A DNA stretch of 63,718 bases, filler included, from Choristocarpus tenellus KU-1152 (lineage: Eukaryota > Protista > Phaeophyceae), in NCBI GenBank assembly GCA_964200185.2. It is 11 parts of 11 records of this genome, joined end to end, with 100 filler letters (N's around TTAATTAATTAA, not from the genome) between each part and the next. Parts side by side here need not be neighbours in the genome. Positions count along the whole stretch, not along the records: positions 1 to 13,698 come from CAXNAD020001403.1; 10 more parts are not named here. One strand, written 5' to 3'. Below are positions 1-17,200 of this stretch, one piece after another (position 1 is the first letter of the stretch; every line of letters starts with the position of its first letter). Below the pieces are notes generated by a model. That model searched no databases and was not told the DNA's origin. It saw nothing but the letters and a program-made list of their open reading frames with translations. The translations under genes were made by a program, and so were the position numbers.

Positions 1-352
1 AAATAAATCGACCCCCCCCCCCCGTTATGATAGGATACACATAAACAGACAAGACACGCACCAAAACTATTAAGAATTGAATACAGTATTATTTGAGGTA
101 TTTATACATTTATTTATATTGGGAACTGAAGGGGACAAAAAATAAATAGCAGCACACCTGTACCTGCAGCAGGTACAGGCAGTAAGAAGAAAACAAAAGC
201 ACAGAGCTAAAAGGGCAGTCCATATATGGACTTTGAAGTACACTACATACTAGCAGTGTGTACAGTAATTGTCCAGGGAAGATATAGTTCTTTTGTAGGC
301 ACACAGCAAACAGAGGTAGAGGGAGAAGAGGTACGCAGTAGAATGTCCTCAC

Positions 353-3300
353 TGGATGGCAATTCTTGTATATGCCTTGGCTGCATTCTTGCTCCACATG
401 GCCGTCTTGTCCACGGTGCTCTTCAGTGTACCATCTACAACTGACTTCGAGACTCGGTCCACAAGACCTGGTGGTTGCTTTTCAGGGCAGTGCACCTGAG
501 GGTAGGGGGGTTGTGGCAGATGTAGGTGGAATAGAGTGCAAAGGCTGGGAAGGATTAATGGAGGAATGCCTTGAACAGAGCAGACATTGGTTTAACGTCT
601 CCTTACAATACATAGAAGAGCAATTGTCACATGACATGGACTCTCTCCTGACCTAAACGGACTCAACGAGCACAGCCCTTCACACAAAAACATTCAACAC
701 AACAGAAAAGATAGCTATCAATAGTAACACCTTGTTGCTCACCCCCTCCCCCTCCCCCTCCCCCTCACGCAATGCAAAACACTACTAGTGTGCATAAAAT
801 CCAGAGATATCTCAACTCCTTGGTTGAATCCCAACATGTCTGAGCTGCTACCTTACAAGCAGCAAAACCAAAAAGGCAAAGGTGTTGTCCCCACATCAAC
901 ACCAAAATAAAAAGGTGCTATTGCTCTAACTGCTGTTCACAATTCTACACCCCTTGGGTAACCGGAGAGAGGCAGTAGTTGCAAATGATAGAAATACTCT
1001 TACAAGGTTCTGTGAAATAATAACTCAGCCCCGGTGCTATCACAACAAGAAACCTTCCCCATGCACAACTTAATAGTTCAGAAAAAAAATCTCAGGTTTC
1101 CTAGAGTCTTTTCCAAGGAAAGACCTATTTTGCCAACATCTGTAATGCTAAGGGGGTCTCGTCATTGGCATTTTTTCTGCCATTCATCAGTGTGTAGGCA
1201 GCACTTACCACACAAGCCTTGAAACTGCCAACTAACTCCATTCAGGAAAAATATTTTTATTTTCTTCAGTCAAATTATTTTGTTCTCCTTTTTACTCTCT
1301 TCCCTTAATCTTCAGCATTTGCCTGACTTAGGCTCTGAAATATATCCACCCTCAGTGCTATTACCATATATGTTGATCTTGGTATTATTATTATTATTAT
1401 TACTATTTATTTTTGTAATGAAGTGAACAAGAAAAACAGTGGAAGTGGACCAATCACAAAACTAGGTCTAATCTTCAATGGTAGAAGATCGATTAAAGTG
1501 CACAGGGTGAGATAAGTGACGTGCCTGCACCTCAAATGAAAACCAAAAAACTATACACCTCTAGTATGAATAACCGTTACAAAAAAAATGTGCTGATCGG
1601 GGTTTTTTTCCCCCTTTTCAAGTACTCTGACTCATCATCCCTATCAGCATAACATTCCAAGTCAACAAAAAACAGTACAAGCATCAAATCGACCAAGTCA
1701 GAGACTCCTCTCTACTGACAAACAATGCTCTGAGCTCTCTGGAGTCCTCAAGAGACCTTTCGTACTCAAACTTAATCTTACCGGATCACCAGTGAGAAGC
1801 TCCATCATGACCACACCCAAGCTGAATATATCTGAGCGCTCATCTAGGTTTCCACTTGTCTGATAAACAGGATCCATATACCTGTCCAAAATTGGTGCAA
1901 GAGGTCAAACACGAGAGGGCTCCAGTTCAGGAATTCCATTCAGGGGAAAGGGGGTAAGGGGGGGGAGGGGAGGAGCAAACTCCCCTTGGTGGGTAACAAC
2001 ATGTCAAACACACTTGACAATGGGCATTCTCAGGCAACAGAACAGCTAGCACACACTGCAAGAAAGCAATCCATTTCACTACTATGCTGCCTTTCAGTTG
2101 CCTGCTGAAAAAAATAATACACATCAAAATTTCTTCATTAACCTCGATTGACTCTTGCCATTCACCTTCTGTACCACAAACTTGTGCCTTTTATTCAAAC
2201 CATACATACTGCACTGTCATACCCAGCACAAACACATACACACATACATTCAAACCCCTGTCCACAAACTGCCAGGACCCTTCTCCTCACACACCCAAAT
2301 GTTCCCTCTAGTGTCTGCGCCTCACGCAGTGCTGCTGCTGCACCACCACCCCCCCCAGGGCCAGAGCCACCATCACTATTACCCACTCTGGATATGCCAA
2401 AATCCGACAGGCGTGCATTGAAGTATTCATCGAGGAGGATGTTCTCGGGCTTGATATCCCGGTGGATCACCTGCTTGCATGTAGATTGCAAAAAGGGGGA
2501 GTGGACAACCATATGAGGCTGAAAGTGAATGGGACAGTGCGAGGTCCTGATTGAAGATGTCCCACGACAGCAGTACAATGCACAGGTGGTGGTACCAGAA
2601 TTTGAACCAAAAAGAATCGGGTTTCAAAGCTGGAGAGTTAATACGCCAGTACCAAAAATCAGCGTACCAATAGCTGAATAGCCTTTCGATCTGGCACCAT
2701 GAGCACAACCAGGATGCCACAGACAGGGTATGTTCACAACCTTCTCACGCACCCTGTCCTGTACTACTCTACCTGGGAGAGCTCAATCAGTTCATTCATC
2801 CAAAAGACGGCTTCAGTCTTCACATGGACCACACCCAGCCCAAAATCCCAACTCAACACAGAATTACGAAAATGCTCTACATCGTAACACCACCCCACTG
2901 ATCTGCTCGTCCCCCCCAAACACATTCAACCCTTGCAAGAAAACACCCTCTGCTGTACCTTAGGCTTGTCAGTAGACTCGCTGTGCAAGTACTCCAGTCC
3001 CTTGCACACATTTACCGTTACACGAACACGCAAACGCCAGCCAAGGCGTCCTCTCAGCGCCTTCTTGTCCAAGTGGTGCCTGAGACTGCCGCGTGAAACC
3101 ATCACCAAATAGCCCATCACAGAACAAGACCAAATGCAAAGAGGGGAGGGCAGAGGGACACAACAGGGGAAAGGCAGCAGAGGCCAACTATGAAGGCCAG
3201 GTCCAACCTCTCAATAGATCTCTAAAGGGCAGAAGCATGGGCAGAAAAAAAGGTGGATGTAGAGTCATTCAGGGATGGATTGTACTACTACTAGGATGAA

Positions 3301-6066
3301 AAAATATGGAAGGTCTTTCTCTTCAACTCTGACTCCGTGTGAGAGGTTCACTGAGTGACCTCCCAAACACGTACTTGGCATGTTAAGTACAAAGGGAAAA
3401 AAATACCTGTTGTTGGGCATGAGGCGGTACACCAGGCAAGGGGGCTCCATACAGACCCCCAGTAGTGGTACAATGTTCTCATGCCGACAAGTGCTCAACA
3501 CCTGAAAGCAGAGGACAGGGTGAGTGCATGCATGGAGGTAGAACGGCAAAGTGTGAGTTGTGACTGGGGGAAGGGGAGGGGGGGGGTCTCCTTCAGTGCT
3601 GTTCCCAGTGCAAGGGGTGTATGGGGCAACAAATGGGTGAGGAGAGATGCTTGGGAGGAACTTGTTGGGGGTGTTTTGTACTATGATGAGCACATGGGTA
3701 GTACATGCAGTCCTGATGTCAGGATCCATGTGCTTGGCTTCCCACCATGTCCAGCAGTACAAGCAATAATAAAGCATTGCCCTTCCAATGATGAAGGCAG
3801 AGCACCAACACTCAAAGGAAGGGGGAGAGAGTAAAACCTCCCCCACTAAATGTACACGCACTCATACTATAATATTGTCCTTCACGTAAATGTAACAAGA
3901 AGATCAAACTGCTCGTCTTGATGACAGCAGACTGAACTAGATGTGACACAAGCAGGTCCTCAGATCAGATGAAATGCCATACCAATGACAATGATAGTGC
4001 ACATGTACAACTAGTACAACATGATAGCTCTCGAGCATTGAACTACCCACAGTTCAACTCATTTGTGCTTCACAAATCAGTGGACAAAAAATATGAACAA
4101 GTATTTGGATGTCAAGGTTGAAGATGTACAAATCATTATACACAGGAATCATGTTCCACAGATCATGTACTAGGTAAGACTCAATCAATGTTGATAAAGT
4201 ATTTACAAATCCTGACTTTTTTGTGTAACCCTTGTTGGTTACACATGGCTGGTAGATATCACTCACCATTTTATCAGAGCATGTAAAAATGATTTGACCC
4301 AATGCATCCAGGCAAGATAATTGTGCATTGCTGATCTGTCCCTAACTAACCTTCTATAAAAAATGTCTACACATTGTTAGGTTTCACTACTATTAAATAC
4401 TGTAATTATGTGCAGGCAGTACTAGGCCCCCTTGGTGTTCTATGGTAAGATAAACAATTCCACCCCCATTTATAAACATGTACAATGTGGAATCCCCAGT
4501 AGTAGTGTACATGGTAACATCTGGTGTGCCATGTCCCCAGGTTCAATAACTGCTGGGGCTGCCCTTAACTTTTCAAGTTGATAAAATTCAATGGGATATC
4601 GGTGCTCAACCCTCACATATACGACGTATCTCCCATTGCGAAAACGCCCACAAGAATCTGTTGGTTCGATCAAACCTCTGTAAAATGTGTTAAGCACAAA
4701 AGTTGTCGTACCACTCCTCCATCTACAAAACGTGTACAACTAACTGATTGTCTGTACGGGCTCCCCTACCCGCAAAAACATGTACATTTGGTTCCCTAGT
4801 ATGAAATTTAGGGTTAGGGTTTTCCGAGTTGAATCCCTTCACAACGACTTGTGCTTGTGAGTGAAGGTGGTACAACTCACAGTCCATCGATTCATCAACT
4901 TCTCATCAGGATGTTTGGAAGATTTTGTCCTACACCGCCTGTTTAAGAGTTACGAAATATGAACGGATAAAACGATTCCAATAATCCGAAAATGAAAATA
5001 GTTAACTCGTAAATCTCTGACTTGTGAGGATGTGCCCTGACCCACATAACTCAGATTTGTGAAAGGAACAGCCATTAATTTGTACGAAATTGTTTTGTAC
5101 AACACATTTAGGATTTGATATGATTGGTCTGAACGTGATAGATCTGCTGCGAATAGATCATTCGGGATCCTCTACCTCTTGAACAGGTCCCATAAAAATG
5201 AACCTTGGGGCACTATGGAGAAGGTGAAGTCCATTACGGGTTAGCTGTGGGCCTCAAATGGAATGAGGCAGGGGTAATGGGGTTTGGGAGTGGGTGTTAT
5301 GGGTTGGGGGCACTTAATTGAAACAAATATCTCACCTCCACCTCCCTGAAGAACTGCTCACGGCCCTGCAGTCCTGTTTCATCCAGCTTCTTAACTGCCA
5401 CAGAAACGCCCATCATGCTTCCCCGGTACACCTTACATCAGATAGACGTTATACATGTAATGATTGAATGATTGATTCATTGATTTACCCATTCATTGTC
5501 AAAATTAGGTTCAATTTGGGGTTGAGGAGGAACTCCGATGACCTCAGACTGAAGACAATGGAACTAATGAGGATGTGACACAAACATGCCCAGGGTGAGA
5601 GACCAGAAACAGTATAAGAGACACAAACCACCGCAGCGGGGGCCACAGCAAGGAAGGCTGAGGTCAGGGCTAGGGGCATACCAAACAGAAGGCGCTGATA
5701 GAAGATGCTGAGGAGGAGGCACTTAAAATCCTCAGAGGGTGAGAACAAAGATATAACCCTCTTAAAATTCAATCCTGTTCACAGACCATCATACAACGTG
5801 GCAGTCTCAACCAAGATAGCCAGAGACAGATATTCTCATCACCCAACCCTCCTCCACTTCCTTATCATACCGCTTCAACCAACCCGCATTCCATCCATTG
5901 CACTTGCTCATAACCCACATACAAATGCATTAATGATTCTGTGCGAATGAACCAGGGGGGGGGGGGGGGGGAAAGGAATTGGGGGGAACAAAAAAAAAAA
6001 AACCCCCCCACCGGGCCCCACCCCCAACCCTCACCNNNNNNNNNNAAATGAAAGTTATGAAGGATT

Positions 6067-6101
<35 letters not shown>

Positions 6102-7751
6102 AATGGGTATGGGGTGAGACAAAAAAAAAAGAGGCTACAATTGGTTTCTAACTCCAGCCATACAACCAAATATACCCTTCTGTTTCACACGAACAGCGCC
6201 TGCCACCCTTGTCCCAAACTCAACATCACCTTTCCAAATCCACCCTCGCCGATACACCGATGTGTATCAAATCCTCCACAAGCCTCCCGAACTTCAGGTA
6301 GTTGGTAAAGTCGCAGCGATGCTGAATCCGACCCAGATTTTGATATCGCACTCTCTTGAGACTGTTCAACATGCTTCTTTCTGGGCAATGGCGTATTAGG
6401 AGCCGAACGATCAGTGCCCCCCGTGCCCCCCCCACTTCCTCCACCACCAGCACGGGGGGGGAAACTCATTCCGCTCTTGTTGCCCCCCTGCCCCCTGCCC
6501 ACATCACCTCCGTTCAACGGGACTGGTACGAGACCTGTACGCATGTTCTCATTAAGACTGAGCGCCGAATTGAGCAAGTCCATTGCTGCAAGATATGGCT
6601 CCAGGCCATCCACCTTGCCCTGCAAAGAAACCAGGGCCAGACACATCCGGAAGTGCAGGGGGGGTCATTGAGAGAGCAAAGACGGAAAATTGTTCTTCTT
6701 CTCAGAATTAATTGTGCGTACAGGAGAGAAAAAAATCAACGCAGCTCAGGTTTTCTGAGAAGGAGCAATCGATTTCCTTCACTGCATTTACTCCCCTCTC
6801 CTACAGCATCCACACACCTTGGGTGAAGACATCCTCAACATATTTCTTGCCTTCTTACACACTAACCCCTTGACACACACACATCTCACCCACTCCCTAC
6901 CCCCCACGATTCCTCAAGCACTGTTCCAATTGCTTCCCCCAACCACAAGCGGAGAGTCTCTAAAATTAAACATACCTCATCGGCTCTGTTTTGGATGACT
7001 CCTCGAAGGCGGTCTTTGTGATCTTTGCACTCCCGAGACAGCTCCTCATAATGCCGATTCTTCAGCAAACACAATCGATACAGGTATGAAAAGAGGTGTG
7101 GACAAGTCGAGGCCGGATAGGCATGGGGAGAGCTAGGCATTTGGACAGCTAACTAACTACTCAGACGAAAATAATTGCCAATGGAATTGAGCTGTTGACA
7201 CCAAACTTAAAACATGCGTAAATGTGGTGGTTGAAGGGAAAATAGACAAAATACAGGGTACTTCCGGTGTAGAACAAACATTTTCACAACTTGCCCCCTG
7301 CTCATTGTCCCCGGAGCCTGCCTCAATTCAACTTGTGTTTTACCTCATACTCGAGCCTCGGTCGGGTAAAAAAGTTCCATTCTTATCTCCTCTACATTGC
7401 CATTGCGAGTGGCATGCCATAGAGCCCCTCAACTACTTATCTGCGATCGTAAGGAACCCTCAAGGAAAGCTGAGCAAGAGACTCCAGTCAAAGGGAAACA
7501 CAAATGTATCACACTGATAGCTGCAATAGACGATCGGTGAGGAAGTGCTACAAAACAGTCAACACAAAAAATAGGGCATTGATAAATGATCGCTTGCGTG
7601 GGGGTCAGAGCACTCGCGCATCGTGCGTGGCACATGAACCTAAATTTAAAACACCTGCAACTGTAAACAAGACCCTCTGTTACAGGGGGAGCAACCAAAA
7701 AAAGATAAGACAAATCATGCGCACACACACACACACACACACGCACGCACG

Positions 7752-7786
<35 letters not shown>

Positions 7787-10700
7787 TGGCATAGCACACC
7801 TCAAATAGTTCACCCCATGACTGGCAGGCTTTCAGGGTCTCAAGTAACAGCTCCGCAGAGATATTACTAGAGCGGAGCACATTGTCCGACACCACCGGTG
7901 TCTTCTTGACTGCCGCCTGGATTGCATTCCTGGCCTCCTGCGTGGACACAACATCAAGGTTTAGGAGTTCTCACAGGATCAAGAGAACACATTATACCAA
8001 GCCTAAAGTGTAGCAGAACACATGTAGTGGGGGAGAGAGGAGGCACAATCTCAATAGGTAGAAATATATACCCTCCCTGCATGCCACGACGCTGTTCGGT
8101 GAGGGCAGGGCTCAACAATAAGAGGGGCTAATAGGAGATGATTCATGCCATGGGTAGAGACTTGGTTTGGTACACCCCAAAAATCTGGCCGTACAACTAC
8201 TGCGGCTGACATCAGGTGTGCTGTGGGGCATGGCCAGTCTACCATGAAGCGGAAAGGGGGGGGCGTAACCTCGAGCAAAAAAGGGCAGAAATAAATCCTG
8301 CGTCAAAACCCACATTCATCATTTGGGGCAAAAGAGATGAGATACGAGGCGTTGACGCTGCTTCTGCAACTGCGGGAAACAATCATGGCCACAAAAGAAA
8401 AAATTGCACCTAACTCTCTTGGGACCAAGGCTTACTCCTCGGGAAAGCCAAGGAGGGCAATGCACACAATACAGCACCTTTTCTCCTCAATTCCTAAATC
8501 ACCACACCCTCAAGTTGCCCTTAGCCCACTCCCAATACATCACCTCTGGCACACTGGAGTGAAACTCAGATCCAGGCACATGCCCTTCCCCATCTACAGC
8601 ATCAGTGGCAGAACCCCTGGACACAAGCTCCTCCACACTGGAGATATGACCACGGTATGCAGCCCAGTGTAGGGCAATCTTTTTCCATGAGTCAGAACAC
8701 TCTGCTCTTGCACCCCAGAAGATAAGCTCCCGGATCACCCCCAGCTGCCCATTTCCTGCAGCCCAGTGCAGAGGCGTTCGTAACCTATTCAAAGGGTTGA
8801 GGGCAGCAGCTTATAAATTGTCAACTACGATTGTAAAGTTGAAGGGCGAGTGCCAGTGCTCGTACAACGGAGACGTAGGTATCGCCATGGGCGTGAAGGG
8901 AGTAGGGGAGAGAGGCAGACAGTTCTACTCTGATGAGATCTTCGGCGAAGGACCGTCATATTTCAGGTTTCTGACGGAAGATGAGAACCTGCACGTGTAA
9001 TAAGGAGCTCTACTACGTCATCCAGCTGCCGCCAGCACTAGCTTCAAGATGTGATCAACAGAACAACCCCCCAAAAAGGTGTACAGCACATCTAGAGTTG
9101 TACGCTGGGGCAATTGAATCAAATCGTTACCGATTTGAACCCGACAAACTGAGGGGTGATTTTTGATTAGTCGCTTCTCACACAAACACATAAAGCTCAG
9201 CGGTTTGCACGCACGCCTCCACCCGTCCACTGCATACAGGCAGGCGTTTTCCACTATAATGGAGTACATTCGGGGGGTTTTCTAGTTGATTTCAACCTTT
9301 ACAGATTGTCTAAAGTTTGGACTCACAACACTCGAGTATAAAGTAGGTATCGAGCATATGTGCTGCTGTTGATCACTAAAACTCCGGTCCAGTAGGAGTT
9401 TTCAGGAAAGCAAGGAGAGTTCCTTCAGATGGAATTGATGTAAATTTTGCCAAAGTTGAAGATAGAAGATTTTTTTCTTGAGAGTGTGTGGGAAAGGGTC
9501 GGGTCCAAGACCAGGGGAAAAGGGCTCAGCTCCACGTATGCGTGAGTAGCCTCTTGTACCATACAAAGATGCAAGGACACACACACACACACAATCTTGA
9601 ACAGGCAGTATCAAGTCTAATGTTGAACAACAATGCAGTTGTGGTCCTTATCAAAAAGCTAGCCGATGCAATGCAGAAATATTCTCAATCACAACATATT
9701 TTCGCAGTTGAACAATGCGTTCACAACATCCATCATCGTCTGTAGGCCATTACCCCCAACCCCCAACCCCGCACAACACAGTAGGCTCACGAGCTGTCTC
9801 TGCTGTTCACATCAGCCTCCCTCATCATCAGCAGGCGGACCACAAACACATGCCCCTTTGCCGCTGCCCAGTGAAGTGGTGTCGCTGAGCTGGGAGCAGC
9901 AATTCCCAGTGATTGCGTGGTGAGGGGAGAGCGGATTGGAATGGGGAAAATGTCTGAAGCGCTTTGGGATTGCTGGGGGGAAAAGGCGTGGCATTGAAGG
10001 GGTGCACTGACTTCCTCCGACTTCTATCCTCTTTTGCAATTAAACATGTGTACCCGATTTTCTTGTGTGTGTCACTGCTTGCTAGAAAAACCCGTTAAAT
10101 TGAAGCGGTGCAGAAGAGGTGGGGTTAGTTCTTGCTCATTCCTCTGCTATCACACACCACACTCATCTCTGCCACCCTCTCACAATATTCGGAAGCATTG
10201 TAAAGTGAACTCATCCAACCAGTCTTGCGGTGTTGCTTTAGCTCAAGTTGAGAAAACAAAAAAAAGTGGAATTTGGACATGACCTAAAAGTTCACAAACT
10301 TGTGTACTGGCTCAGACATCAAACCCTCCACTGTTGCCAGGCAGATCACAGCACTTGATTGGTTGTCTACAAAAAACCTAACCCTACCTCTAACCTGCTC
10401 CCACTTTGTTCTATTGATAATATGTGGCACTCTGTGTTGACTACATTGCCCCTGTGACTGTCTTCAAGCCAAGCAAAGTCTTTACGTGCTGGGCAATTTC
10501 ATCACACTCGAAGTCCTTGTTCAATGTCACACACTCACTGCCTGCCATCCCTGGCATGGACATCTGCACCACAGGTCAGCAAATGCTCCACAGTTGGCAC
10601 GTGGCCCTCGTTCACAGACCAGTGGAGGATTGTTGCATCATATTGACTGTCTCGAAGATTGGCCTGAGGCATGGTAGATGAAAGGGGATGGAAGGAAGGG

Positions 10701-11451
10701 CGGAGGGCGGGGGGGTTGACCTTTGGAAAGCAAGACAAAACGGAGTCTGTCACAACTGAAGGAACTGAGGGAAGATACAAAAGACTTCCACAATAGAGTG
10801 GTTCAGTTCTTGAGCATCCAGACCAGAATGTTCAACGGATCAAACATTTGAGATAGTGACCAACAGATTGTCGCGTCTGCCAGAATGAGTACACGGCCTC
10901 CAGATTGAGATATTTTGAAGCTTGACTCAATCTGTTGCATCAGACACGTCCCTCAGGCACTACCATAGAGGCTCCCGATCACCTTATCCATCCCACAAAG
11001 ACGCATAATGGATACACAAAGTTACTTGGGTGGGATTAACATGAATATGTACCTGTCCCTCAGGTCAACACCCCTCCACATCACTCTATAGATGTAGAAA
11101 ACCTCAGGATATTTGTGCCCTATCTTTTCCTCATCAATAAATGTAACCAGCTATTTCAAATGGCCAGGGTACAGGCTCTCAATGTGAGGCAGCATGGGGA
11201 AAGGAGTGGTATCCCTCCCAGGAGTCAAGAGGCCCAATTGAAGCACTAACATCTCAACACATCTCTAAATTCTACCCTATGGTGCTTCTATTGATGTGGC
11301 ATCTCCTAGTTGACCAAACCCTCCCGTAGTACCATTTTCCTTACAGATAGTCTAAACTCGCCTTTCCTGGTGTAACAGCCTCCTTCACTTTCTGCCATTC
11401 AGAGCGGTTGATAGCCTCAAAGAGGTCCACCCGCCCTCGAAACAGGTTCAT
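353..11451 (-). CDS. Spliced gene: ankyrin repeats + GAT-like domain + IRAK/Pelle/RLK-type Ser/Thr protein kinase (3' end runs off the window)
   Basis: Hand-built exons (minus strand): 11362-11451, 10539-10663, 9791-9889, 8544-8784, 7800-7937, 6976-7059, 6230-6619, 5336-5431, 3407-3501, 2959-3085, 2295-2470, 1782-1881, 353-495. All phases are compatible, giving about 634 codons with no stop. Ankyrins: [48 protein letters not shown]. Kinase motifs: [97 protein letters not shown]. The subdomain XI exon was not found inside the window. Confidence 0.88.
4529..5218. mobile_element. Possible non-autonomous DNA transposon in a kinase intron
   Basis: Imperfect terminal inverted repeats CCATGTCCCCAGGTTCAAT (4529) / AATGAACCTTGGGGCACTATGG (to 5218) and a non-coding interior. 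Single copy in the window. Confidence 0.3.
7721..7784. repeat. (CA)n/(CACG)n microsatellite
   Basis: Directly visible, just inside the intron after exon 7800-7937. Confidence 0.9.
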
Positions 11452-13198
11452 CGCCCAACAGATGTGAGGAAAGCGTGGTTGGTCACTTCGCACTTCACTC
11501 TAGGTCAAGAACACTCCTCACCAGTACAAGGGAACCTTGGCTCACCAGCTCCAGAACAGGCCTGATATGAGGTTGCTACGCCTTCCACTCTTACAGATTG
11601 TCTTGAGTTCCCCCTCTCTCAAAGCTCTCTGTTAAGTCTACCTGCTTTGTCACCTGTTGCTACCTATAGCTGGAAGAGAGGCAATGAGATGCAATCTTTT
11701 GAGGATGGGAGTGGATGCTTGAGGGCAAGGGGAAAAAAAAAATGAAGTCCCGTACACAATATAGACCACTCATTATCCACCTTACGAGGTGTTTTGGTTT
11801 GCAGCTGTATACAGAGCTCCAATGCAGATTATACATAAGAGTTGCAAGATATAAATGTTGTAAAAACCTCATTCTTTCGAGAATCGACATGCAAACCCTT
11901 CATATGGATGGTGCTTGACTAGCATCAACAGTCTAGACAAAGTTGCCACATGGCCAACACTCGAAAGGCACGCAAAAACAGGAGGAACCTCTAGCTGAAG
12001 TGAAGAGCGGCTTGTACTTAGCTTATACTGATGCGTTCCTCTTATTACTTGTAGCACTGACTGTCAGTGCTAGCAATTCTCTCTCAAAAAATATACGACA
12101 ATCAATCAACAAGACAACTCGAGTAGAAAAATGCCAAGTCATCGTCACAATGGGCCAAAGGTTTCGTGAAAATTACAGAAAGGCAATCAGGGGAGAGGTT
12201 ACGCTTTAAGCAATGTGAAATAAGCATAATTACGAAGACGTTGCAGCGGAACACCTCGGAAGGTCAACCAGCTTCGCTTGATGTTGGCCGAAAACGCTAC
12301 ATATTATGACGGGGCAGAGGAGGGCAGGGCGTCGAGCTGTGGATCAGTATTCAAGCATGGCCAATGATGTAGTTTGGTTTGAATCCCGACCCAGGCACAT
12401 ATATATTAAGGACTGACCGCATGGACCATCACATACTGTCACGCAACGATGTGCAAGCCTGGCACCAATCAGTGCCTCCCAATAACCTATCTTCAGGCTC
12501 AACTTTCAAGCTCTTGTCCCCCTGATCGAGGATAGATATAAGTGACCAAGGATTTTGGCACTAGTGGGAATCAGTAGGACACATCGCATGACCCCATCAA
12601 TCATAAACCTGTCACCCTATCATTCCACAATTTATCTCCCATAGTCCTTCTCAACAACACCTACATGTGACAGCCGTAGACCACATCACCTCAAACAACC
12701 AAAAACAGACACGTAGTGGATAAGAAGGAAGATCTTTAACCCTCAGCAAAAACGGACTTGATCGGAAATACCCACCCCGATTCTAGGAGCCTGATTGAGT
12801 CAGCCTGTCTGGACCCAAAGAGTTCTTGGTAGCTCTGCAACACGGGATCAAGGAGTGTTAAAACACACCACTTCGAACAAGTGTTTTCTTAAGCTCGGTG
12901 TAAGGCACAGGTAGTCACACTCTGCCCAGACCAGGGAGTCGGGAAGTCATATTTCCAAAAAACATCGATGAAACATTAGGTGATCCTAATAATTGGAACG
13001 CAATTGCCAATAACGCGGGAGGCCTGGGACTTCTCTGCTTTGCTTTCACAAAGAAAGAAACATCTAATAAATAGGAGTTGTTTCTTGTTTTATTTTCGAT
13101 TTATTCTCCCCTTTTAGAAATTACAGTTCACTCAACATAATAGTTTGGAAAAGAAGGGGTTGGATAGTTTACCTTTGTATAGTTGGTAGTCATCTCTA

Positions 13199-13520
13199 GG
13201 TGGAGACCAGTCTTGATTTTTTTGAAAGGGTTGCACAACGAGTTCAACGACGATCAGCCTATCGAATGAACGTTCTTGATCTAAGCTATCGATTTCCGGA
13301 AAGGAACTATTTCGGAACATTATTTTGGGAAGGTCAAATTTTAACCGAATGTTTTCGGCACAACCTTGAAAATATCTCGGAATGAATTATCACGGCCAAA
13401 CATATTTTCCGAAAGAATCCCTTTGCCTAAATCGATAGCCTAGACCCAGAGATTTCATTTGCTATGCTGATCGTGGTTTAAATAATTGACCAACCTTTAA
13501 AAAAATCAAGATCAGTCACC
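13199..13520. mobile_element. Foldback/palindromic MITE-like element
   Basis: About 130-bp degenerate inverted arms, e.g. TCTTGATTTTTTT..AAGGGTTG vs CAACCTTTAAAAAAATCAAGA, ACGATCAGCCTATCGAATGAA vs TTCATTTGCTATGCTGATCGT, and GCTATCGATTT...TTCGGAA...TTTGG vs CCAAA...TTCCGAA...AAATCGATAGC, around a loop of about 65 bp. Confidence 0.6.
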
Positions 13521-13608
13521 GCCAAAACGGTACCTGGGCTAACCTCGGGTTAGTACAGTTTAAGCCACTCACAGGAAATTATGAAGCACATCGAGTCCAA
13601 GTTGTGAC

Positions 13609-13698
13609 CTGCCCCTTACAGAACACTGTGAATTGAACCCAATAGAGATGGTCTGGGGGCAGGCGAAGTACTATGTACAAGGCCACTGTGACTACACA
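13609..13698 (+). mobile_element. IS630/Tc1-mariner (DDE_3-type) transposase fragment
   Basis: Translates LPLTEHCELNPIEMVWGQAKYYVQGHCDYT, the catalytic-E motif (LPxxHCELNPIExxW). Cut by the contig end. Confidence 0.7.
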
Positions 13699-13798
13699 NN
13701 NNNNNNNNNNNNNNNNNNNNNNNNNNNNNNNNNNNNNNNNNNTTAATTAATTAANNNNNNNNNNNNNNNNNNNNNNNNNNNNNNNNNNNNNNNNNNNN
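13699..13798. other. Artificial contig-joining linker (first of 10)
   Basis: 44 N + TTAATTAATTAA (stops in all six frames) + 44 N. The same linker occurs at 22905-23004, 26859-26958, 29694-29793, 34168-34267, 37134-37233, 46755-46854, 49731-49830, 54839-54938 and 60528-60627. Confidence 0.97.
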
Positions 13799-14208: not shown

Positions 14209-17200
14209 GGTGGGTGTGAGGGGTACCTTGTGTTTGGCGCAGACAGCTTATCTGATCAGGTTTTTGTACTACTCAGTCCTGAAGGAGCCATGGTTGGTCA
14301 TGCCGGCAGAAGTGCTTCATGGTATGAATATGTATTCTTGCACGCAAACACATAAGCATCTCCACTTCGCATACTTGCATCATTTGCATTGCCACCAACA
14401 TCCTCTGTCTGCACATAGACATATGTTTTTGTGAATATATAGTATAGTGGTGGTGTACACATCTTTACATATGTATGTACGCCACAAGAATATATTCCTT
14501 GTGCATACGTTGCATGTATCATCTAGACAAGGAAGGTCAAGTAGAGAGTATGCAAGAAAGCTCTCTCCACACAGACATGCACATGCTTGGAAGTACATAG
14601 GTTTCCCTAACCCTGACTCTTACAGTGAAAGTTACAAGTAGCTTCAATCTATTACTCATAGAAAATACGGTCCTTCAGGTATGTATGATAATGCAAAAAT
14701 ATTTGTCCAATATTGAAATATCACTGTGTTGGTAGAGTGGTATATCAAAAGTCTGACAAAACCAGAGGCCAGGGTACTACCTGATTTAGTCTACGGGCCA
14801 GCACTCTCCTAGGTGCATGCTTCCTCCCTCCCTCCCTCCCTCCCTCCCTCCCTCTCTCTCTCTCTCTCTCTCTGAATCCCAATCTTTTCATTTCCTGTTG
14901 AGCCTGTGTAACCGCTGGACCCCTGCAAACAGATGTACTGAATCAAAGTTAACAATAGAAGAGAGGTGTGTTGATTTTGGCTGTTTTGAATCTAAGAAAG
15001 GCTCTTTCAATGTGTTCAATAGAAGAAAGAAAAAACACTTGAAGAAAGGTGTCGAGAGGCATAACTCGATTCTGCCAACTGCGTCTACTCCCATAACAGA
15101 CAAATTGCGCTCCACAAGTCTGGAATCTTGTGTGTTCTAAAAACACAGGTGTTTTTAGAACATCGGAAGGGCTCCTGAATCTCTGCTGAATTCCCCTCAC
15201 AGCTATTTTGACTATCCTCCCATCATCAACATGTATGATACTTTTCTCATCTCGCTGATAATGAGGTTCGGGAGAGTATTATCTCAATATTTGGCACTAT
15301 ATGGCACTAACCTTCTACATAGGAATGCTGAGTACAATGCAGGCTCACTTGTACACAGTAACGTGGTATTGACTATTGGCCGTTGACTATTGAGCCCTTA
15401 CCTTAGTTTTGTGTCTGGGGTCCTAGTTTTGTACATCTGAAATTGTTACCATGCAATGTACTCCAGAGTATATATACATTTTTGCAACCCCTGACCATCA
15501 CTTCATCATGTATGATCTAGAAAAATCTGAGACCCATCAGGGCTTTCTAGGAGACCCCCCAATATTTTTTCGGACGCCAACAGCTGAACATTTAGAGGTT
15601 GGCATCAAGTGTTACACCAACTTGAAGCTTAAACCACAGGCTTTCACCGCCTTACATCATCACAAGTATATGCTATATACTGCCTGAGATAGTTGCAATT
15701 ATATCTGATCAATTGAACAATGATCCGCTAAGGATGAAATTTGAAAAAGTGCCTTCAAAGCGAGATAGAAATTTGATTAGTACTTCCATCCGTAATAGTA
15801 GCAATCACTCCCCAAGCAATCATCTCGATATTAGCATTCCCCTTGAGCCCGTTTCCTGGACTGTCCCTGCCACACTAAGGGAAGTATAGTCAATCAAGCA
15901 GTCCAGCTAGGATTTGAACCCACAACCTCTGATTTTGTCAATCCCATGAAACAGCAGTAGTCTCACCATGTAGGTTAACCTCATTGCACATGGCTTGTCC
16001 CTATGAAGGCAGTAAAAATCGTCATGAATTATATTGCAAGACATTGGTGGCAAACTCTGTACATATGTTGTACTGTGTCATCTTATGGCAGGCCTGACGT
16101 TTGCTGCCATGTGGGCTGCCGCTAACTACTATGCCAACAGGCTCGCCCCAGGTCAGCACCCTAACCCTATCCCTCAATGAAGTAGTTGGGGCATTACCAT
16201 TGATTGTAACTGTATCACCCAAGAGTCATTGTTGTGCATTTGTTCATAGCTAGGGTTAGGGTTAGAGCAATATGTTTTTGTGTCAGCGAATATAACAGTT
16301 TTGTGTGGTGTATGCACACACTCAAATTCCCTCATCTATGGGAGCAAAATGAGCAAATTAAGGGTTGTGAACAACGCCTTTGGAAGGCTTTGCCCATCTA
16401 CAACATTTTCCCATCAACATTTAAGTTCAACAATGGTCAGTTTGTACCGTGCACCAAATAGGATGCCTTCACCCTGCTATCTTGATGTCACTCGCCCTCT
16501 TTTTTCCCCTCTCTCCTTCAGCTGAACTCAAATCCACGGTACTGGGACTGGTGACTGGGATTCACTGGGGCCTGGGGTTTGGATTGGGTTCTGTTGGAGG
16601 CGGGTTTGTTTACTCTATTGTTGGAGCCCAGGAGTGTTTTTTGTTGAGTGCTGCACTCCCATGCACCTCGCTTGTCCTCCTTCTGATTGGTGGTCGGCGA
16701 TCTGGATCTGGAGCTGGCTCTGGGGCAGCACAAAAACAGCGATGGGGAAGTAGCGTGCTTGGTTCGGTGGAAGACAAGGTCCACAGGGAGGTGGGAGGCA
16801 AGTGTGGAGAGGAGAAGGATAATTTCTTGCTTACAGAGGTGGCAGGCGATGAAAGCTTTGTGCAAAGGGTGAGGACAGTGACAGTGAGGTCTTTGATGGA
16901 CCTGAAGGGTGTGGGTTTTGTGTGTCAGGGTTCGTGACTATAAGGATAAAGTTACTACCACAATGCATACATAAGTGTATTACATATATATGTGTGTATT
17001 AATACTTTTTTGGCAAATGTGGACCTTGCATACCTCCAAAATATTAGGCCATTTAACTAGTACATCGTGTATTGTACTGGACTGTGCGTGTTTCTTGCAT
17101 GCCCTTTCTAGATGTGCAATTCACATTCATCTCGCCAAAAATCAATGTGGGTATATAGATGGGTGATCTTTTAGCTCAAATCGGAATATGTTGGAGTGTA

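Follow-up and report, generated by a model that had tools for sequence, protein, structure and literature searches.

What kind of signalling protein is encoded at positions 353..11451, on the minus strand, of the window (the whole 63,718-nucleotide stretch analysed, a concatenation of contigs) from the brown alga Choristocarpus tenellus, and in which cellular setting would it act? A preliminary description, made from the sequence alone, had read the locus as an intact 13-exon frame joining four ankyrin repeats, a GAT domain and a kinase with RLK/Pelle hallmarks, and had proposed an immune or endosomal signalling module in a lineage that is neither animal nor plant. The lineage is indeed a stramenopile one, and splicing 13 minus-strand exons from 11451 down to 353 yields a stop-free frame of 634 codons, in which four ankyrin repeats are followed by a GAT-like three-helix bundle and an IRAK/RLK-Pelle-type kinase. 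The NCBI protein P0001 from the same species is identical to residues 1-588 of this frame, and Pfam finds in it the four ankyrin stretches and the kinase (E 3.7e-37). As had been stated, no transmembrane segment is evident in the 634-residue frame, since the best 19-residue hydropathy mean reaches 1.4.

The gene model is borne out by 11 of the 12 introns being joined at their modelled lengths in spliced contigs of run X3, which we treat as RNA because its contigs are spliced; the run comes from one study, is of a kind not on record and possibly derives from the same material as the assembly. These contigs place the ankyrin and kinase exons in a single gene, as first proposed. Runs X1 and X2 contain none of these joints. 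The joint of intron 5 is not among the X3 joints listed; given that joints at repeats were dropped (two in one comparison and one in another), this argues neither way. Upstream, the 3′ end of a 5′-UTR exon (12777..12805) is spliced to about 11670, where the loose end of an X3 contig matches it exactly (0 expected by chance). The coding part of exon 1 (11362..11451, residues 1-30) opens with an ATG at 11451 preceded by an in-frame stop, shares its N-terminus with P0002, P0014 and P0214, and ends in a GC donor with an X3 joint. The ankyrin repeats are encoded by exons 2 (10539..10663, residues 31-71, repeat 1), 3 (9791..9889, residues 72-104, repeat 2) and 4 (8544..8784, residues 105-185, repeats 3-4 and cap), all backed by the frame and X3 joints. 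Exon 5 (7800..7937, residues 186-231), assigned from the frame, the Pfam GAT match, an AlphaFold model and structural matches, supplies a bridging helix and GAT helix A; exon 6 (6976..7059, residues 232-259), which follows an AAG acceptor and is backed by the frame, identity to P0001 and the model, supplies helix B. Exon 7 (6230..6619, residues 260-389) runs from GAT helix C through a Gly-rich linker and an IRAK/RLK-type N-terminal extension into the glycine loop of the kinase, the remainder of which is spread over exons 8 (5336..5431, residues 390-421, the VAVK lysine K403 and αC E419), 9 (3407..3501, the hinge with Tyr446 in the gatekeeper position), 10 (2959..3085, residues 453-495, αD-αE, from the frame and X3 joints), 11 (2295..2470, HRD at 498-500, DFG at 518-520 and a Gly-rich activation loop), 12 (1782..1881, subdomains VIII-IX, with Val559 in place of the usual subdomain VIII Glu) and 13 (353..495, residues 588-634, subdomain X). 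AAG acceptors are used at introns 5 and 7, the latter preceding exon 8. Exon 13, which has an X3 joint and matches P0007, P0020 and P0214, is absent from the NCBI model P0001, where the reading goes on into intron 12.

The frame is thus open, but the gene is not intact in the sense first claimed. An apparent stop just past base 353 sits within a GT splice donor (352-351) that begins intron 13 (1..352, minus strand), and an X3 contig exits the window at this donor and then reads C-C-S-P-K-P-E-A-R, which is kinase subdomain XI. As the transcript runs past exon 13 and no such exon was found in positions 1-352, the 3′ part of the gene, from exon 14 onward, lies past the contig end: the window holds only its front part, the first 13 coding exons. 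We disregarded ORFs past 13698 as genomic context, the window being a concatenation.

Where the transcript leads can be read from the orthologues. P0014 (Ectocarpus, 1483 aa), P0214 (Ascophyllum, 1402 aa) and P0139 (1078 aa; 71% identical to the window protein in the kinase and 45% in the ankyrin repeats) are full-length proteins in which ankyrin repeats, GAT-like bundle and kinase are followed by a motif-rich linker and a divergent β-propeller corresponding to the clathrin terminal domain. In P0020 (Discosporangium) the kinase C-lobe is joined to the propeller, and in eight more ORFs from several sources (P0050, P0052, P0054, P0055 and P0059-P0062) a single frame covers both subdomain XI and the beginning of the propeller; it is this same subdomain XI exon that the window's transcript enters. 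In Choristocarpus tenellus itself a propeller fragment, P0043, lies on another contig. Judging by its orthologues, the gene in the window probably ends in a clathrin-terminal-domain-like propeller too; the ankyrin-GAT-kinase order of the preliminary description is confirmed, but its onward continuation had been missed. One might suspect that gene predictors merged neighboring kinase and propeller genes, seeing that the E. siliculosus record P0022 comprises linker and propeller without a kinase and that P0001 and P0043 are separate records. We regard this as very improbable: the junction is in one frame in the eight ORFs, P0139 holds all four domains in one protein, and the split records, P0022 excepted, are partial or on short contigs.

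The full architecture is conserved across brown algae, and its ankyrin-GAT-kinase part is also present in Chrysoparadoxa. In a full-library HMMER search, family members made up three of the 150 matches listed, the list being swamped by long ankyrin proteins; hence it does not show that diatoms, oomycetes or other groups lack the family. A metagenome scan with P0139 as query gave no match, and one with alignment A5 returned generic ankyrin loci, none of whose 79 members matched the GAT-region or propeller profiles. The nearest Atlas clusters to P0139 (0.91-0.93) are ankyrin-kinase proteins, such as RIPK4/ANKK1, TNNI3K and the plant ankyrin kinases, which likewise combine ankyrin repeats with a kinase; these kinases belong to families other than the algal one, and none of the clusters listed includes GAT or clathrin families. 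The architecture had not been recognised at the outset, and our literature searches also found no description of an ankyrin-GAT-kinase-linker-clathrin terminal domain protein. The family members are annotated as unnamed proteins because Pfam fails to detect the propeller and scores the GAT too low.

For the kinase, all the motifs originally quoted are present, and the RLK/Pelle assignment stands on the best matches. With the Ectocarpus orthologue fragment P0018 as query, the 54 PDB sequences with E<=1e-22 are without exception RLK, Pelle or IRAK proteins (E 3e-37 to 1.8e-25), and the first outsiders, EGFR (8e-21) and CTR1 (3e-19), score 4-6 orders below this group; P0007 and P0139 give a like pattern, with RLK, RLCK and IRAK proteins best. 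A Tyr gatekeeper and an N-terminal extension are hallmarks of the IRAK/RLK-Pelle kinases, and six of six family members have CLVY at the gatekeeper, aligning with LVY of SymRK, while the N-terminal extension aligns as well. A tree of 14 kinases lacking named reference kinases left eight of its 10 inner branches open, and we accordingly class the kinase as probably of IRAK/RLK-Pelle type from similarity, not from a tree. In this domain it resembles IRAK4, IRAK1 and Pelle and the plant RLKs and RLCKs (SymRK, Pto, FERONIA, BAK1 and BIK1) and, like IRAKs and RLCKs, it is predicted to be cytosolic; unlike these kinases, it has no death domain, transmembrane segment or ectodomain and instead bears ankyrin repeats, a GAT-like bundle and, in the orthologues, the propeller.

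Its catalytic residues bear on whether the protein acts as a kinase at all. The subdomain VIII Glu is replaced by Val in P0001, P0014 and P0214 and by Ser in P0139, being retained only in P0112; the transcript does encode its usual partner, the subdomain XI Arg. Of the five members with the RD motif, three have lost the arginine: the window protein and P0139 keep it, whereas the motif reads HGD in Ectocarpus and Ascophyllum and HSD in Chrysoparadoxa. All five IRAK-class kinases of P. infestans are predicted to be inactive (PMC3019232). One could therefore picture mainly an adaptor between ubiquitinated cargo and clathrin adaptors with little or no kinase activity; however, the glycine loop, VAVK lysine, αC glutamate, HxD..N and DFG are kept in all five spanning members (P0001, P0014, P0214, P0112 and P0139), and we think such a scaffold rather improbable.

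The same kinase also raises the alternative of an immune or stress hub, wherein an IRAK/RLCK-like kinase would be recruited to ubiquitinated internalised receptors and relay a defence signal, with the trafficking contacts serving for placement only. Besides the RLK/RLCK/IRAK matches, this draws on the non-RD members, as non-RD plant RLKs function mainly in immunity (PMC10943584), and on the sorting of IL-1R1 by TOM1/TOLLIP (PMC7952518). Yet both the window protein and P0139 are of the RD kind, Pfam finds no sensor, TIR or death domain in P0001 or P0139, and the 87-89% identity of the kinase domain across brown algae would seem more housekeeping-like. An immune hub is thus unlikely, if somewhat less so than a scaffold.

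The helical region aligned by eye with GAT domains in the preliminary description proves to be GAT-like, falling short of a formal Pfam assignment. On the isolated region, PF03127 matches at E 9.4e-5 over profile positions 3-70 of 77, with 23 bits (18.3 in the whole protein) against a curated cut-off of 31; it is matched in six of seven members. The AlphaFold model of the region (pLDDT 83.8) is a three-helix bundle for which GAT chains ranked 1, 3, 4 and 10 of 48161 in a structure search, including GGA1 (Z 10.8, rmsd 3.0, 83 aligned) and TOM1 (Z 10.3, rmsd 3.2, 89 aligned); these Z scores tie with those of designed helical bundles, and the GAT chains are 16-20% identical in sequence versus 8-12% for the other top-ten rows. 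Foldseek placed GATs at ranks 1, 2, 5 and 6, with no match reaching E 0.001, the Atlas TM values are 0.67-0.71, and the GAT profile, searched against PDB sequences, gave GGA1 first, at E 0.07 only. On helix C, L269 is present in seven of seven members and D273 is an Asp in six; both align with the Leu/Asp of GGA1, which we take to be ubiquitin site 2 (helices B/C). The helix B glutamate E237 is a Glu in two of the seven members only, and the residues of ubiquitin site 1 (helices A/B) of the GGA3 GAT (L227, M231, E246, L247 and E250; PMC7721868) map onto the bundle in no single register. The bundle is likely a putative ubiquitin-binding module. The TOM1/TOL/GGA proteins share with the algal family a GAT-like bundle and a later disordered region with clathrin-box-like motifs; however, in the latter ankyrin repeats occupy the position of the VHS domain (Pfam finds no VHS in P0001, P0014 or P0139, and no GAE was detected), and only the algal proteins have a kinase and a clathrin-terminal-domain-like region of their own.

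The propeller and the short helical linker align with clathrin heavy chain residues 1-363, with 21-27% identity over 277-334 columns, and we take them as homologous to its terminal domain and linker, placed at the C-terminus of a kinase. The PDB matches of P0020 are clathrin heavy chains in 18 of 19 cases (best E 1.1e-7), the mostly C-terminal propeller profile A2 retrieves clathrin in 16 of 16, weakly (E 0.005), and hhalign gives a probability of 95.9. Structurally, Foldseek lists only clathrin down to rank 39 (best E 5.4e-11), and the Atlas comparison yields 0.96 for features and a TM of 0.65 over 345 residues; in VIA-align, with a poor model (pLDDT 45), clathrin came second and fifth among tied propellers, which backs the propeller fold without singling out clathrin. 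The Pfam Clathrin family had no match in P0014 and P0139, the orthologues searched. No clathrin terminal domain is known to us other than in clathrin heavy chains, and our searches found none beyond these proteins. The orthologues stop just after the propeller and linker, with neither leg repeats nor a trimerisation domain, and therefore cannot build a lattice.

Conservation within the propeller is highest in blades 1-2, where the clathrin-box groove is formed. By comparison with site residues given in PMC5182127 and PMC11543927, I80 is kept and F91 is F/Y in all six propellers, and K96 is R and K98 is K/R in five of six; the anchor Q89 is Q in only two (H in three, R in one), R64 is Y/F in all six, W-box residues Q152 and I154 differ from those of clathrin, Q192 falls in an alignment gap and the Royle residues are not alignable. 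In the linkers, L[LIVMF][DE][LIFM] occurs in 18 of 25, including the 62-residue linker of the distant P0139, with the pattern picked after viewing the sequences and many rows being close kin (25 of 28 rows were counted, P0043, P0047 and P0048 having no linker); in most of these motifs the acidic residue that ends the strict clathrin-box consensus is missing. PPxY motifs are found in 24 of the 25, but a partner for them is not obvious, as ligases of the WW-HECT Nedd4 type are reported from Opisthokonta and Apusozoa only (PMC3673628). Such divergence would also suit modules that have lost their binding of ubiquitin and clathrin boxes and now have a generic or intramolecular regulatory function in a signalling kinase unrelated to coats: identity to clathrin is low, the propeller has large Gly-rich loop insertions, Q89, R64, Q152 and I154 are changed, and the GAT is under threshold, with identities of just 21-29% between distant members. 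Against this, it is precisely the clathrin-box groove that is best kept, the LIDL-like motif survives in P0139, and a chance pairing of two separate trafficking modules in one chain seems unlikely; we give repurposing only a small chance, marginally below that of a scaffold.

As the gene continues into such a propeller, the endosomal or coat side of the original proposal is favoured, and for the immune side no support was found. We consider it somewhat probable that the product of this gene, which is expressed, is a cytosolic kinase of IRAK/RLK-Pelle type associated with coats or endosomes. The GAT would bind ubiquitin on membrane cargo, while the groove of blades 1-2 might bind clathrin-box motifs of adaptors or, as a latch, the LIDL-like motif of its own linker, which could also dock onto true clathrin; jointly, these contacts would bring the kinase to sorting sites, clathrin-coated or endosomal, there to phosphorylate coat, adaptor or cargo proteins or to relay a signal, with the ankyrin repeats choosing partners or substrates. 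Functional analogs among coat-associated kinases are ACK1/TNK2, bearing a clathrin box, a PPxY motif and a UBA, and the NAK kinases AAK1 and GAK, with their coat roles, which are of different kinase families and reach the coat via peptide motifs that bind the clathrin terminal domain; the algal kinase instead carries a copy of that domain, and a GAT in place of the UBA. ACK1 binds EGFR and clathrin in clathrin-mediated endocytosis (PMC5897031), and TOM1 has both ubiquitin and clathrin as ligands (PMC7952518). A bolder version, which we hold as tentative and on balance doubtful, is that of an ochrophyte coat-reading kinase, wherein a clathrin terminal domain and a GAT were grafted onto an IRAK/Pelle kinase so as to mimic the adaptor-binding head of clathrin, latched by its own clathrin-box motif and active only where ubiquitinated cargo meets clathrin adaptors. 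This would be a non-lattice use of the clathrin head, of which our searches found no counterpart.

Since Ectocarpus is a genetic model, the proposed role is directly testable. If true, an IRAK/RLK-Pelle-type kinase would here be linked to trafficking instead of receptors, and a conserved kinase with a clathrin terminal domain and a GAT would represent an independent way to regulate ubiquitin-dependent sorting, in a lineage whose multicellularity arose separately from that of animals and plants.

The gene under study, on the minus strand of a contig spanning positions 1-13698, is truncated at its 3′ side by the contig end. Its 13 spliced exons (coding part of exon 1, 11451-11362; then 10663-10539, 9889-9791, 8784-8544, 7937-7800, 7059-6976, 6619-6230, 5431-5336, 3501-3407, 3085-2959, 2470-2295, 1881-1782 and 495-353) yield 634 stop-free codons, preceded by a 5′-UTR exon near 12777-12805 evidenced by X3, a run with spliced contigs. 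Each of the 12 introns has AG at its end; the start is GT in 11 and GC in one (11361-10664), and two (7799-7060 and 6229-5432) have AAG acceptors; X3 backs the GC intron and one of the AAG introns. It joins 11/12 introns at their modelled lengths, the exon 5-6 joint alone being unlisted; hence the ankyrin, helical and kinase exons share one transcript, as the preliminary description supposed, although X3 comes from a single study, possibly of the same material as the assembly. Exon 7 is 100% identical to the NCBI protein P0001, whose record names the brown alga Choristocarpus tenellus, and the model equals P0001 across residues 1-588; the C-terminus of P0001 is false, reading through into intron 12 (1781-1701) and skipping exon 13. 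A GT donor at 352 closes exon 13, and an X3 contig exits the window there with 30 extra letters encoding C-C-S-P-K-P-E-A-R, which matches the orthologues in their subdomain XI. Bases 1-352, the rest of the contig, do not contain this exon 14; the frame claimed earlier as intact is thus open throughout, but the gene is incomplete.

In intron 8, loose ends of DNA contigs gather at the edges of the stretch 4061-5240 (4061, 4091, 4119, 4276 and 4996-5037), which suggests a dispersed repeat. The window chains short contigs through N-spacers (N44-TTAATTAATTAA-N44 at 13699-13798, where the letters were read, and eight similar sites up to 60627), so nothing past 13698 is true neighborhood. On the next contig, a plus-strand ORF (16425-16934) with a weak major-facilitator match in Pfam (MFS_1_like, E 2.2e-5) is probably a transporter gene's final exon; a minus-strand ORF beside a contig end (49830-50342), without a Pfam match, looks by eye like a copia-type gag fragment.

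Complete orthologues, namely P0014, P0009 and P0007 of Ectocarpus (the latter two without part of the N-terminus), P0214 of Ascophyllum and the distant relative P0139, run past the kinase into a Pro/Gly-rich linker and a domain of ~380-500 residues, for which the Pfam scan gave no name. Sequence and model comparisons identify it as a clathrin heavy-chain terminal domain of divergent sequence, i.e., a propeller: a protein search gave four matches, the sole non-family one being clathrin heavy chain (E 3.1e-6); clathrin makes up 18/19 PDB sequence matches of the Discosporangium protein P0020 (best E 1.1e-7); hhalign gives 95.9% for propeller versus clathrin; and P0043, a propeller fragment from the same-named species, shows clathrin features in the Atlas (0.96; TM 0.65 across 345 residues). 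Our own P0043 model is poor (pLDDT 45); with it Foldseek finds clathrin alone down to rank 39 among the matches listed (E 5e-11, TM ~0.3), and VIA-align places clathrin second and fifth amid tied propellers. Identity to a fish clathrin terminal domain is 21-27%, extending through the short helical linker, and that alignment revealed no leg repeats in the family proteins. Separately, a catfish record, P0021, bears the name clathrin heavy chain but also has helicase Pfam domains and ~550 extra N-terminal residues, and is likely a chimeric model.

Could the kinase-propeller fusion be a modelling error? This appears unlikely from the sequences, and an artefact is very improbable as an explanation of the family, given that eight further ORFs carry subdomain XI together with the opening strands of the propeller in a single reading frame, and that P0139 has all four domains despite identities to the window protein of 45% (ANK), 21% (GAT) and 71% (kinase). 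P0012 and P0019 start exactly at the start of exon 14, and P0020 also shows the join; in P0061, the one of the eight ORFs examined over its full length, the flanks resemble translated intron. Because P0001 and P0043 come from different contigs, for the window's species we infer the join, and a propeller on its own gene, from orthology. A partial record from Chrysoparadoxa, a PX-clade relative and not a brown alga, contains the ANK-GAT-kinase part. A full-library search was flooded by ankyrin proteins, with three family members among the 150 matches listed. The order ANK-GAT-kinase of the preliminary description stands, but that description misses the linker and propeller of the orthologues.

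The helical region, previously proposed as a GAT domain, is GAT-like by sequence and predicted structure, though under the Pfam cut-off: Pfam GAT matches the whole protein at E 0.0028 and the isolated region at E 9.4e-5 (23 bits versus 31), with matches in 6/7 aligned family members. AlphaFold predicts three long helices (pLDDT 83.8). Among 48161 chains, the GGA1 GAT ranks first (Z 10.8, rmsd 3.0, 83 aligned) and third (Z 10.4) and that of TOM1 fourth (Z 10.3), with designed bundles scoring level; in Foldseek, ranks 1, 2, 5 and 6 go to GATs of TOM1 and GGA, none reaching E 0.001, and the Atlas's own model gives GAT TM 0.67-0.71, under its naming bar. In helix C, L269 (7/7) and D273 (6/7) are kept and align with GGA1, at what we take to be ubiquitin site 2. 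Family residues have no confident mapping onto ubiquitin site 1, as described in the consulted part of PMC7721868; the third helix of the TOM1 GAT binds ubiquitin (PMC7952518, PMC13386808, both in excerpt).

The kinase, by sequence comparison, is IRAK/RLK-Pelle-like, as was first claimed: all 54 PDB sequences matching Ectocarpus P0018 at E<=1e-22 are RLK, RLCK or IRAK, counting a few generically named entries that are presumably Pto or RIPK, and the first outsiders are EGFR (8e-21) and CTR1 (3e-19). An immune relay, as such kinases might suggest, is nonetheless an unlikely role. A stramenopile precedent exists in the five IRAK-class kinases of P. infestans (PMC3019232, in part). In Prymnesium parvum, another protein, P0211, combines multiple ankyrin repeats with an IRAK-like kinase but shows no GAT or propeller match; the pairing of ankyrin repeats with an IRAK-type kinase thus also occurs in haptophytes. 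Family kinases retain the catalytic Lys, Glu, Asp and Asn and the DFG, with Tyr as gatekeeper in 6/6 members; in brown algae Val takes the place of the subdomain VIII Glu, and the HRD of the window protein and P0139 is replaced by HGD in both Ectocarpus and Ascophyllum and by HSD in Chrysoparadoxa. That the proteins are scaffolds with little kinase activity we consider quite unlikely.

Among 25 linkers (three linker-free rows left out; many are close kin, and patterns were picked after viewing the sequences), PPxY and a [WF]W pair each occur in 24, DLLxLF in 23 and a LIDL-like motif in 18, the last arising in 0.3-4.4% of shuffle trials per linker. In the available portions of PMC5182127 and PMC11543927, the strict clathrin-box consensus has D/E as its final residue and fits between the first two blades of the terminal domain, contacting Q89, F91, K96 and K98. 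Family propellers have I80 and F/Y91 in 6/6, mostly R at the K96/K98 positions, Q89 in 2/6 and altered W-box residues; that the domains have been repurposed is, in our estimate, about as improbable as a scaffold. As the part of PMC3673628 consulted does not report Nedd4-type WW ligases for heterokonts, PPxY has no evident partner.

The architecture is undescribed in titles and abstract starts among the matches listed (for one query, the best 20 of 1122), most subscription papers being outside coverage. Clathrin, ankyrin and IRAK have zero occurrences in the main text, as available, of a preprint on 60 brown algal genomes (10.1101/2024.02.19.579948), whose composite-gene supplements may list the fusion; the sections covered of PMC10463195 and PMC3473312 do not mention it.

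The family thus places a cytosolic kinase between two modules whose known relatives serve ubiquitin- and clathrin-dependent sorting. We lean towards a kinase sited at coats or endosomes through contacts of the GAT, propeller and linker motif: the GAT would read ubiquitin on cargo, the propeller would read either clathrin-box motifs of adaptors or, forming a latch, the motif in the protein's own linker, and that linker motif may dock onto true clathrin. Through these contacts combined, the kinase would sit at coated pits, at TGN buds or at clathrin patches on endosomes. ACK1 offers a working analogue (PMC5897031, in part), with a like mode of work, although the family lies outside ACK1's kinase family; likewise, it would work as a TOM1-kinase hybrid without being a TOM1 family member. 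The type, a coat-associated kinase or ubiquitin adaptor, would be a known one, built here from an unusual set of parts.
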